NCBI RefSeq assembly: GCF_022045235.1
Contig: NW_027266271.1
Location: 23,002,001-23,066,000 of the forward strand
Reading direction: 5' to 3'
Source: Haliotis cracherodii
Lineage: Eukaryota
DNA: 64,000 nucleotides
Made by a program: the position numbers and the translations under genes. The notes under the pieces were generated by a model, which was not told where the DNA came from, did no database searches, and was given only the letters and a program-made list of their open reading frames with translations. The number at the start of each line of letters is the position of its first letter. The first letter of the stretch is position 1. Positions 22,001 to 37,000 of the stretch are shown piece after piece.

Positions 22001-25000
22001 CGGAGTGTCCTTCTTAAACTTGATGTTCCAGATGAGAGCCACGCCATCGGGGTCGTGAGGTGAATCTTCATTTGTGTTGTAGGACGCCACCAGGAGTTCC
22101 GGGTGCTGAGTGGACCAGTCCAGGCTGGTGATAGTTCGATGCTTAGACCAGCGCTCATCATAGAAGGCCCGGTTCAGCTTTAACCTCTCTCCTGCTAGAG
22201 CATCACTACAGGAAGGAAACACAGACAGGCTTACTGAATCATTCTTTCTCAAAGACCAGGGCCCTGTTCCACAGGCGATCGTAGCACTAAGATGATCATA
22301 ATTTCCATATTTTAACATAGACTTACGACAGTCGTAGCGCTATGATCGCTTTGTGGAACGAGTCCCTGGCCAGCATGAACTAACTAGTCTTAGATCATCA
22401 TCAGGACAAGTATAAGATTCTGACCCTCATCCACTAACATCACATGAAGCGTTTACTTACAAACATACCTTCCTTCAGCCAAGGCAACACAAGCTGTTCT
22501 CATGAAATGTCAACAAAATTGTTTAAGACTTTGCACCAAACATAGAGTGACCCATGACTCAAAACAAGTTAAGGATCACACAATTATTTCATATTACTAT
22601 AGTAAATCTATATAATCTATAATCTATGCCATGACAGATTAACTATAGTAATCAGGCGACCCTTAACTTTTTTAAGTAGTACATAGCTGTCCCTTAGACA
22701 TAGCAATGACTGAACCTACTCATCATTGCCTTCCCTGTCGCCACCAGAATAGTCCATGAAGATGTCAGTATCTTCAGCCATTGCTCGCTCGATGACCCTA
22801 GCTGACTTGTAGAAGAATGTCTGGAAGTCGTCACTCAGCATGATGGATTTCTTTTCCTCTTCACTCATCTCGCGCACTGTGCGACATATAAATGTCTATT
22901 ACTTCATGTACAATCAGTCTACACCCCTTTCTCTTGTGTGAGTAAAGTGAGGTGAGGTGAGGTGAAATTGGGTTTAACGTCGTATCCAAGATTATTGCAC
23001 TTATATAGCGACATGCCTGCATGTGCCTGTGTGTGTGTGGCTGCTTGTACTAGTCTGGACTGATGCCGATTTATAGTGCTTGCCCACTGAGAAACCATGC
23101 CGCAGTTTAACATGAATACCCCACACAGTATACTGACACCGAGCCAACCAGTCCTTGTTTTAGCCCCTTAATGCTGAGCGCCAGACAGGGTAACAACAAG
23201 TACCATCTTTTAACGTCTTTTGGTACGACGCGGCCGGGGATCGAACCACGTACCTTCCACACTCCAATGTACCACGAGACCACGGAGGCGGTTGTGTGAG
23301 TAAAGGAAAGTGTACCTTTCAAACATTTTCTCAGCCAACCCCCTCCATAGGGTCATGAATAGTCTCTCTTACAGACCCAAGAGCATATATTTAATTGTTA
23401 AAGTCAAAAGTCGTGGTTATAGAAACTTGAAAAATATTTTTTTCAAAAATCCCAAACAATCAAAAGGCATCAGTTTACCACTAGACCTATCTATGTGCCA
23501 AGTTTGCTGAAGAAATATTGTATGATTTTCAAGATCTACTCAGAAAATGAGCACTACAGCCATTTTCAGACTAAGTCAAAGTTGTTGCTACGGAAACTAA
23601 AAAAATAACTTTTTAAGAAAAGATAAAAATTGTCTAAAGGCACCAGTTTACCACTAGACCTATCAATGTACCCGGTACCAAGTTTGGTGTAAAAATATTG
23701 CATGGTTTTCTTGAGCTGCTCTTGAAAGGAGCACTACCGCCATTTTCAGTCTAAGTCGTTGCCATGGAAACTCGAAAACTAAATTTTTGACTAAAAGAAA
23801 ATGTCAAAAGGCACCAGTCCACCACAAGACCTATCTATGTGCCAAATTTGGTTAGGATATCTCTCATGGTTTTTTAGTTCTGCTCTGGAACAAAATGTGC
23901 CGGACAGACGCCGTACGGCAGACAGAAAGACGGGAGGACGGATAGCACCCATTCCTATGTAGCCCTTTAACTTCATAGCGGGGAATAATCATACCTGTCT
24001 ACAGACAATTGAACAACAAACCTGTCCAACAATCTAACATACCAGGTCATGTGTGTTGAGCATGGTAAGTTCCACACCATGAACCTTTTCTCTCTATCAA
24101 ACTAACCTGGAATCTTCTCTTCCTTCTTCTCTCCATCTTGCAGGGTTGGTGGCACCATCTCCACATGAGGCATCCGGTGAGCTGGGGTCGAGTCCACACC
24201 CACGTCCATGGAGTCAGTGTCCGCCTCATCATCTGATTTTTCAGGGTTGTCATAAACAAGAACTAAGTGTTAATAATTCCATGAGGCTGCTCTTAGAAAT
24301 GGCAGATACAACATTGGCAAAACACAAGCATTAGCCACAGTTAGTGTAGTTAGCCTTAAGGTGGTTACACAAGAATGTCACATTTAGCATGACCTTGACT
24401 TTGTTATGAACAATCAACACATGGTATGAACATGCCACACATATTGAACATTACAACACAACTTCAATAATCAATAAAATAATCATAAATTAAAACATAT
24501 TTAAAGTGTTTCAACAATTCCCATTATGAAACATTTCGGAGTCTTTTTCTTGGTACATGTATTACATGTTTGTAATATATACATACATATGAGGCATACA
24601 TAGGAAAGGATATACATGACTTTTTAGACATGGTTACATGCAAGGACACAGACTCAATTAAATACACAAGGATGAACTCTCAAAGAAACATCCACAATGA
24701 GTAAATCCCTGCAAACACCCGATTCATGCAAAATATCACAAAACAAGCATCATCATCAGTTTCAGTAGACTAACCAACACTTGTAAACACAATTTACTAT
24801 ACACTGTACTTTACACTAAAATAAGGAATTATAATGTTTTCTCATATTCATTTTAAATTTAAAATTTCAATAAACATCCACTACTTGTACCACTGTAAAC
24901 ACCATTTGGCTCTGAAAAGCAACAAAATATTTCAATCTTACAATTCCTCCACACTGTGCATACAGCTGCAATGATTGTGATTGTCAACAAGCTGTTTAAT

Positions 25001-34000: not shown

Positions 34001-37000
34001 ATACAAAATATATGAAAGCACACAGGACAACAACCTTATTTCCTGGAAACCCTACAGGGTTTTAGCTTGTCATTTTAAGAAACGTCAGAATGCATACAAT
34101 AAGAGTTGATCAACTTGCCATCTCAAATATAGTGAAATAAACAAAAACAGTTAAGAATTTCAAACTGCCTCTTGATCAATCAGTTTTCTAATGTATGCTA
34201 TCATCTATAATATATATCGGGTAAAGGCATAATTGTTATGAGTGATTATCATGAGTTTAACACTCATGAAAACACATGGTCGTTAGTATGGATATACATT
34301 GGTACATAAGAAACATTTACCAACAACCATCTTGTGAAATTTAGTAATTATATATCATGAATGAAACCAGTTCTAGACAGAAATATGGAAACTACTTCTG
34401 AGAATGATTAGCCTAGAAATGACTAACCCACTTATTCCAGTATTAACATGGCTATACTCCCTGGCTCTACTTCATATATATTCCATATGCAAGACATACT
34501 TTAGTAGGAAATACACCAACCCTAATAACCCAAAAAAACATTAAATTTAAAACATGCGCCAACTTCATTTCATCAAACTCAAACTCCAAAGTACTCAAAA
34601 TCAATACCAATATTCATTGAGGTCTAGTTGATATATTTGATAGAAAAACCCACTCTATAATAAACTATATAATTTCTGATGATTATTCAAATACTTAAAT
34701 GCTTTCTGACTGATAAATGAAATTTTAAATTTGTAAATTTTAATTCAAAACATTAAAGTCCAGAAATGACAACCATAAGTCAAAAGATTGAGTAAACTGT
34801 TGAAATGGCAAATTGTCGATTACAAAATCCATGTAAACAGAAAGAAAGATACTGGCACATGACAGATACAGCCGCTATGCAGTGATGATAGTCTACAATG
34901 ACAACTAGCGCCCTCTGTGGGGACTCTAGCGAACTACTCACTGGCAGGACCTCGACCGCCTTTCAATCCTGACGTCAAATAAACAGGCGAGTATCAATTT
35001 CCAATCATCATAATTATAGTTATGATATAATATATTTGTTTATTGTTTAACGTCACACTCAGCAATATTCCAGCCATATCGCAGTGGTATCTCAATAATT
35101 GATTCTGGATCAAACACACCAGTGACTTACATCATGAGCATCAGTCTACACAATTGGGACACCATGACATGAATTAACCAAGTCATTGATCCTGACCACA
35201 TGCTCCATTTAGTCGCCTCTTATGACAAGCATAACTTGCTGAGGACCTACATTCTAACCCAGAAATCCCCATGAAATAATGGTCATATTCCATATGATGT
35301 TTTCCTGAAGGAAATACATGTCAAAACTGATGCTAATGCTGCATAGGTCATATTACTCAGGGTAATATCACACCCTTAGTAATATAAAATCAAAGAAAAT
35401 AATGGGGTAAATAAAACTGGTTATTCAATAAACATGATGATATATACAATTCAGTCAGAATCCACATTCTGTGTTTAAATAGCACATAAGGGGTGTGTAC
35501 TGAACAAAATTTTAATTCTTTTCTGAAAGACATAACGTCAAGATAGCCCTTTGCACATCAGACCAATAGCAGTCCAAACAACCACAGACTACGGAACTGA
35601 AAATTAGAATAATTCCTTGTACCATTACAATGGCACAATCAAATACATGTCAGAATTTCTGAAACTGCACATGTGCACACCAAGGATAACACAAAAGACC
35701 TTGCATAAATTAACTTTGTGTCTTATTCAGGTTATTTCAGCCATTTCAATATCCCATCCCCGTTGTCTGATACAATCTGAAAAAACATCAGCTGAAATCA
35801 AGCAGAAGGTTCCATGCATGAATATCCAGAGGACTCCAAAACAGCTTTTGGAATCCCCCTGATCTTCTTACCCCTGCATCGGTGGGATTATTGTGCAAAA
35901 TTAAATATGCAGTGGTTAAAACCATAATGATCTAACAAAAGTTCATACTTACAAATATCATCTTACTAATTGAAATTTTTCAGTTACTTTATATCAAGAT
36001 ATCATCCTAAGTATTGGCATCTTTGAAAGCAGGGATAATTCTAGGGTGGGGGCTTGTGCTTTTAGCCCCTGAATTTGAAAAAAGGCCCACATTTTCAAAT
36101 ACAACAGGGCATTTTAACATTGTACTGTATGGGCATGCCTCTGGACTATTTAACATTTTCACAAAAAGGGCTCATGTCAGAAAATTCCTTGTGTGAACCC
36201 TGTGAAAGCCTACATGCATCTCTGTTCCAGGGCAGGTTTCACACTGCTGTGTACACTGTAGCACTATGAGTCATTCATGTCTGCTAAATCACCAATAGCT
36301 GTGCACTTGGAGTGAGTGTTATACATGTAAGTATCAACTGAAATACCAACAGTTCCACACTTAATATTAACTTAATAAATAACCCAAACAGTGAAATATA
36401 GTGCATAAATACATCTTATCACAGCATAAACATCAGTGAATAAACAATAGCAAGTCCCCTTGTGACTACTGACAGCAAATCCTAACAAGAACCGTTCCTA
36501 GAAGATCTGTGATCTGAAAATATCCATGTATATAGTACCGCACAACTACTTTGTGACGTAAGTAGTGGACTTAGGAACGTAGCTCTTACTTCACGTTAAA
36601 CAGTCACACACTTCTCTCAAATCTTAATGCAGCAGCTAAAGGTACCGGTTACTCCACTGTACCTGCAATAAACGTCTGACAAGAGAACTAGGTACAGGTA
36701 TTAACAGGACATCGGCCATTGGCATACTGACCATCCTTATCCAGTGGTTCTGACGCCACGGTCTGCACCTCCTTGCTGTACGTCACATTTTCCTTAGGCG
36801 GGATGTTCGTCTCCGACACTTTACACATTGATAAATTCACCTTTCTCTTGGAACTGAAAATTAGGTTATGTCTAATAAACAAGATCCTAATACTCTTCAT
36901 TTCTAGAAACTAAAAATCTAGGATAAATAGTTTACCAAAAAGAATGGGTGCAATGAACTTAATTGTTGAATTCTTCACATCAGTAAATAATTACAGTGGC

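Follow-up and report, generated by a model that had tools for sequence, protein, structure and literature searches.

Optional exons between the LC8 and LC7 sites of the dynein-1 intermediate chain gene of Haliotis cracherodii, and a predicted kinesin-1 docking motif in one of them

The DNA analysed here is a stretch of 64,000 nucleotides from the abalone Haliotis cracherodii (contig NW_027266271.1, positions 23,002,001 to 23,066,000; hereafter the window, with coordinates counted from its first letter), which carries the gene encoding the intermediate chain (IC) of cytoplasmic dynein-1. The closest family is DYNC1I, the match to human DYNC1I2 having an E value of about 1e-224, and the hallmarks of a dynein IC are all present, namely the N-terminal helix, the Tctex/LC8 site and the C-terminal WD40 propeller, together with a PF11540 match at residues 112-142. 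Optional exons are scattered over 12.5 kb of intron downstream of the Tctex/LC8 exon, and the features that matter for the argument are as follows.

About 16084..42677, minus strand: coding span of the dynein-1 intermediate chain, from tblastn of protein P0033.
36732..36853, minus strand: upstream core exon with the Tctex and LC8 sites, ending in phase 1 before GT; placed with the IC peptides of PDB 2PG1 and 3FM7.
34942..34968, minus strand: cassette A, 27 nucleotides (nt), basic and Gly-rich; AG..GT, phase 1, in annotated isoforms.
30672..30695, minus strand: cassette B, a 24-nt microexon encoding RGPWDYY and ending WDYY; AG..GT, in isoforms and an X1 contig.
29439..29471, minus strand: cassette C, 33 nt, Ser-rich, with one Ser-Pro (SP) site; in isoforms and in a spliced C-D joint of run X1.
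28838..28936, minus strand: cassette D, 99 nt, with a MEWDDEF core and an acidic run; AG..GT, in isoforms, core present across phyla.
24233..24262, minus strand: segment E, 30 nt gained through the upstream acceptor 24262, of VL[VT]YD type; optional equivalents in other phyla.
24107..24232, minus strand: downstream core exon from the short acceptor 24232; spliced directly from 36732 in contigs.
22720..22876, minus strand: next core exon, whose helix is taken as the LC7/Roadblock binder from the known IC layout.

Cassettes A, B and D are flanked by AG and GT, have lengths divisible by 3 and are open in phase 1, and the two acceptors of the downstream exon, 30 nt apart, are both in frame. When all five segments are included the linker between the LC8 and LC7 sites is lengthened by up to 71 residues. 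Every boundary given by the first-pass annotation, which was made from the letters of the window, proved exact (the donor at 36732, the exons 34942-34968, 30672-30695 and 28838-28936, and the acceptors 24262 and 24232), and all the exons it named are real, but the 33-nt cassette C at 29439-29471 had been overlooked.

The array is real and already annotated, not hidden. Twelve exons of the window, including all five segments, reproduce the RefSeq protein XP_071101512.1 of H. cracherodii with 0 mismatches in 390 amino acids, and the segments are already present in the RefSeq models of four Haliotis species with near-identical peptides. At least 14 of the 32 segment combinations occur among 45 Haliotis proteins of the four species, a lower bound given that 15 of the 31 members of the main cluster were included, and cassette C appears in this set only alongside D (9 of the 45 proteins); the XP_ isoforms are automatic gene models. 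The linker is predicted to be disordered (predicted local distance difference test, pLDDT, below 50 over residues 78-260), and this prediction and the mixed use of the isoforms bear out the earlier proposal that the disordered LC8-LC7 linker contains a combinatorial module. Sequence alone is insufficient to prove exons A-D. In this intron 792 stretches of 9-150 nt between AG and GT are open in frame, and 39 of them pass a loose splice-site filter; six of the 39 have a strong donor. Four of these six are cassettes A to C and a variant of C, and D is not one of them. The exons stand above chance because of their annotation, their conservation across phyla and one spliced inclusion joint.

Contigs from sequencing runs, whose RNA nature is the guess of the tool, contain joints at boundaries of the array, with short overlaps. 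The full skip from 36732 to 24232 is present in contigs of three of the four runs of one study (X2, X3 and X4), where it is the only array joint among the joints listed, and in a contig of run X1 C and D are spliced together at their exact boundaries, the ends being CT..AC; in both kinds of joint the short side has 28-29 letters, below the tool's bar of 31. Contigs of X1 also break at the B acceptor and at the C donor. Three runs from other organisms (X10, X17 and X18) yielded contigs that are unspliced, most of them 90-95% alike, and that show no exon joint; they are uninformative either way. Among 18 Logan-assembled proteins from other species, B and E are present together in 8 and no segment is present in 10.

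The reading frame of exon D meets no stop for 99 codons counted from the start of the exon and reaches into the intron (28350-28838), with an AATAAA at 28350, and the X1 contig runs through the D donor unbroken. A truncated terminal isoform is possible, though unsupported.

The module extends well beyond abalones, having been found in gastropods, bivalves, Octopus, a chiton and the nemertean Lineus, and a set of 89 proteins, most of them from molluscs, contains all 8 combinations of B, D and E. For mosquitoes and Lepidoptera, with 92 proteins compared, we counted 17 combinations of six optional pieces, and the insect counterparts of B (HATDYY), D (ending GLEWEDEFT) and E (VLTF..) come immediately downstream of the LC8 site, arranged as in the abalone. 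When the Haliotis and Papilio variable regions were aligned in order, with gap costs set by hand, the score was 52.4 against a shuffle maximum of 51.0, and for Haliotis and Anopheles it was 40.8 against a maximum of 29.9, neither score being reached by any of 5000 shuffles; the best local block was matched by 19 of 20000 shuffles for Papilio and 3 of 20000 for Anopheles. This pairwise control parsed 29 of 150 representative linkers. The alignment of the DYY, EW.DEF and VL segments with insect isoforms, on which the first-pass annotation had staked its case, was thus obtained with mosquito and moth proteins. Its claim of homology, made for the fly variable region, holds with mosquitoes and moths for B, D and E, but A and C could not be aligned with insects; its further claim that the module is extended in abalone is weak because A and C are unalignable with insects and insects, with six optional pieces of their own, are equally rich in them.

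Parts of the module reach further still. The DYY end of B is common to insects, a nemertean and flatworms, and an optional equivalent of E occurs in insects, molluscs, a nemertean and flatworms; in Echinococcus and in a Dicrocoelium cluster an optional B precedes E. The sequence EWDDEF is present in the clade I nematodes Soboliphyme and Romanomermis, and looser forms of the segments were found in Cichlidogyrus and Mesocestoides. All the abalone junctions are in phase 1; the corresponding phase in insects is deduced from proteins, through the G-starting codons of the first residues of the segments, and that in flukes, likewise from protein, through an I/V swap at the start of E. In vertebrates none of 7 proteins has a tryptophan in the LC8-LC7 linker, and 3 of the 7 have one upstream. 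A mixed-phylum profile aimed at annelids, chelicerates and invertebrate deuterostomes returned, as the best 120 of 5088 matches, proteins of abalone, Lineus, mosquitoes and Lepidoptera only, with no Drosophila protein, and the comparison leaves those three groups, cnidarians and Drosophila out. Protein P0210, which has B, D and E in order, is unplaced and sits on a long branch of a quick fallback tree.

Variants of the segments were seen in several groups. Other nematodes (P0149, P0289 and P0172) have at the position of D an acidic stretch that contains F and lacks W, possibly a decayed D; in the Anopheles isoforms P0291, P0294 and P0301 an acceptor inside D retains its last seven residues alone, with the EW; oysters have an additional optional stretch just upstream of the LC7 helix, and Lineus an extra piece of 4-6 residues before E (P0051, P0058 and P0076).

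The core of D resembles a known kinesin ligand. The W-acidic motif of kinesin light chain (KLC) cargoes is described as a tryptophan flanked by aspartate or glutamate, often with leucine or methionine at -2 (Sanger 2017, PMC5450233), and the peptide of SKIP is given as TNLEWDDSAI (PMC6214655). Haliotis D has NMEWDD and that of Octopus and Patella NLEWDD; the abalone tryptophan is flanked by acidic residues, with methionine at -2 and a context predicted to be disordered. Across 28 genera with D the residue at -1 is acidic in 28 of 28 and that at -2 is L or M in 22, F in 5 and Y in 1, where the genera were chosen for having D by a pattern that includes +1 and leaves -1 and -2 free. The motif was found in 3 of the 80 N-termini that could be parsed among 150 representatives, all three being protostome proteins that have a segment resembling D; shuffling the Haliotis region produced it in 1.1% of cases. 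With every optional segment skipped, the abalone isoform lacks tryptophan in its first 220 residues and has none before the LC7 helix; B and D add one each, 32 residues apart in the full form.

There is a precedent in mammals, where two WD motifs in spliced loops of DIC1a are reported to bind KLC and to drive the anterograde axonal transport of dynein (Twelvetrees 2016, PMC4893161). Because the core of D fits the W-acidic motif, because tryptophan enters this part of the chain only with B or D and because of this mammalian precedent, we suggest that the inclusion of D probably switches on docking to kinesin-1 through KLC, a reading drawn from sequence and analogy to which we give a probability of roughly 0.55. 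This kinesin mechanism is new in the present analysis, the first-pass annotation having proposed none for the array. The MEWDD core of D would bind the groove of the KLC tetratricopeptide repeats as the LEWD peptide of SKIP does, and the WD of B may provide a weaker second site. Dynein containing D would then be carried towards the plus ends of microtubules, most plausibly along axons as for mammalian IC1, and the SP sites of C and D might tune the docking by phosphorylation.

Several observations weigh against docking through D. Phenylalanine stands at +4 of D in 26 of the 28 genera, a count partly selected by the choice of rows, in the place where SKIP has serine, and kinesin binding leaves it unexplained. 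Cassette B lacks an acidic residue at -1, its only aspartate following the tryptophan, and insect B has no tryptophan; the second acceptor inside insect D, used in 3 of 92 proteins, retains the EW core and loses the leucine at -2. D is the least directly supported piece of the array, resting on gene models and one contig joint with a short side of 28 letters from one study, and it is present in 0 of the 18 Logan-assembled proteins, a count that fits restricted inclusion without demonstrating it. The Papilio shuffle maximum also comes close to the observed score, and short acidic motifs are easy to over-read.

A search of the PDB with exon D gave nothing at an E value of 10, and the Atlas had no usable match for residues 150-225. 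A Y-acidic KLC1 motif, such as those of JIP1 and TorsinA, was also considered for B and E and rejected, because these motifs are C-terminal and B and E are internal; the motif is described as sitting at the C-terminus, with JIP1 requiring its free carboxylate (PMC6214655).

The aromatic and acidic cores might instead bind a different partner, such as a cargo adaptor, VAP or a protein of the Atg8 family, possibly through a motif created at the junction of B and E. We consider this unlikely, although it would account for features that kinesin leaves aside. The W-acidic definition does not call for the F that is kept at +4 of D, all 8 of the assembly-derived proteins that bear segments have B and E together, and the junction DYYVL recurs in molluscs, insects and flatworms. 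The core of an LC3-interacting region (LIR) is an aromatic residue, any two residues and an aliphatic one, which DYYVL fits, and the EFFDD of several gastropods is FFAT-like. However, LIR cores are frequent by chance, Haliotis and insects read EFT and not EFF, and in most genera D agrees with the published KLC motif from -2 to +1. The partners of the LC8-Roadblock linker are named as an open question in a 2024 review (PMC10886578).

A second alternative needs no new partner, the segments acting as spacers or as tuners of charge and phosphorylation that alter light-chain avidity and the autoinhibition of the IC. The predicted disorder of the linker, the net charge of -11 of D with its two SP sites (three across C and D) and the free variation of A and C among molluscs are all in keeping with such a role, and linker length has been proposed to affect IC autoinhibition (PMC9771362). 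Spacing and charge have no need, however, of the W, F and YY fixed across insects, molluscs and nematodes, and for the array as a whole we hold this explanation to be quite unlikely; it may well describe A and C alone. That the segments are artefacts of annotation or splicing noise, resembling insect segments by chance, is very improbable and already largely refuted. As many as 39 intron candidates pass the loose filter, the XP_ isoforms are automatic and runs X2-X4 offer only the full skip among their listed joints, but these points are outweighed by the near-identical peptides of four Haliotis species, the same segment order across phyla, the shuffle tests, the assembly-derived proteins with B and E and the CT..AC joint at the exact boundaries of C and D.

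The predicted docking of kinesin-1 through D can be set beside the variable ICs already described in other animals. Drosophila is reported to make at least 10 tissue-specific isoforms from its only IC gene, Cdic or short wing, by way of three small exons that lie between exon 4 and exon 5 (PMC2908135, PMC10886578). The mosquito and moth proteins share with the abalone the order of B, D and E directly after the LC8 site; they differ in that their first segments, 11 and 10 residues long, are their own and that their D contains an acceptor, whereas the abalone has A, C and a D that is longer, SP-rich at its front and acidic at its tail. A supplement on fly microexons lists a 33-nt pan-neuronal exon, dependent on the enhancer of microexons (eMIC) and given under the label Sdic1, followed by two acceptors that lie 24 nt from each other (PMC8797185); the 33 nt match the 11-residue first segment of mosquitoes and the 24 nt their 8-residue E, and we infer that this row is the fly sw exon. 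The entry "sw" in the fly gene ontology sheet was dropped as fly evidence, since it refers to mouse targets.

As in mammalian DIC1a, the candidate tryptophan-acidic motifs of the abalone are supplied only by alternatively spliced segments of the IC N-terminus, which is disordered, and the shortest isoform lacks them. Vertebrate IC splicing is described as lying upstream of the Tctex/LC8 sites (PMC2908135), in contrast to the abalone candidate motif, which lies downstream of the LC8 site and in non-homologous exons. The vertebrate W motifs being spliced upstream of the LC8 site, the switch would either have arisen on two occasions, at different positions, or have moved. It is conceivable, if somewhat short of an even chance, that the protostome ancestor already possessed a splice-operated kinesin-1 docking switch in the LC8-LC7 linker, which survives as B, D and E in insects and spiralians, and that the switch of vertebrates arose independently upstream of LC8. 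SKIP and calsyntenin-1 likewise have a tryptophan flanked by acidic residues, L or M at -2 and a disordered region (PMC5450233, PMC6214655), whereas the abalone motif belongs to a subunit of a motor, is encoded by a cassette exon and is followed by a conserved EF.

A second optional region was seen upstream of the abalone LC8 site, comprising a 45-nt cassette (42174-42218) and an 18-nt alternative acceptor (38077/38059). Both are used in Haliotis isoforms, neither contains a tryptophan, and they occupy the same place where vertebrates splice.

In being short and keeping the frame, the exons of the abalone also resemble the microexons of the neural eMIC program (Srrm234, SRRM3/4). TGC occurs at -12 and -6 of the B acceptor, and within 40 nt of the acceptor it is present for B and C and absent for A, D and E; the AG-free zones of A, B and C measure 87, 37 and 39 nt against 13-28 nt at core acceptors, a comparison made with no null model. 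Mouse Dync1i2 is listed with a 60-nt eMIC-dependent exon (PMC8797185). According to the same source, the fly eMIC targets are little conserved even in other insects, unlike abalone B, D and E, which reach across phyla.

The exons themselves were known from RefSeq, and what is new is their homology across phyla and the predicted kinesin-docking reading. In the literature that could be consulted, as titles and openings of abstracts with most subscription papers outside reach, we found no report of a module shared across protostomes or of a W-acidic motif in an invertebrate IC. The module provides a case of microexon homology between insects and molluscs, against the poor conservation reported for fly microexons (PMC8797185). 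The docking reading offers a residue-level hypothesis for the role of the tissue-specific fly IC isoforms and for the partners of the LC8-Roadblock linker; if it is true, the known fly Cdic isoforms would differ in whether dynein can ride on kinesin-1, which bears on whether the neurons of invertebrates deliver dynein to axon tips as those of mammals do.

Elsewhere in the window, tandem partial copies of the 3' end of a WD40 exon, donor included, lie at 21554-21661, 21499-21546 and 21102-21155. The first is identical to 21669-21776 at 106 of 108 bases and a further copy is interrupted by a repeat element; these copies represent either a recent duplication or an assembly artefact. An open reading frame (ORF) at 45274-45612 on the plus strand, head-to-head with the dynein IC gene, presumably encodes a protein resembling SDHAF3 or another of LYR type, and a 361-codon ORF on the minus strand (12686-13768) encodes what we take to be a protein like a G protein-coupled receptor. 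The window also contains a 489-codon ORF on the plus strand (1625-3091) and a GC-rich tandem repeat at 6777-7807 that is open in several frames.

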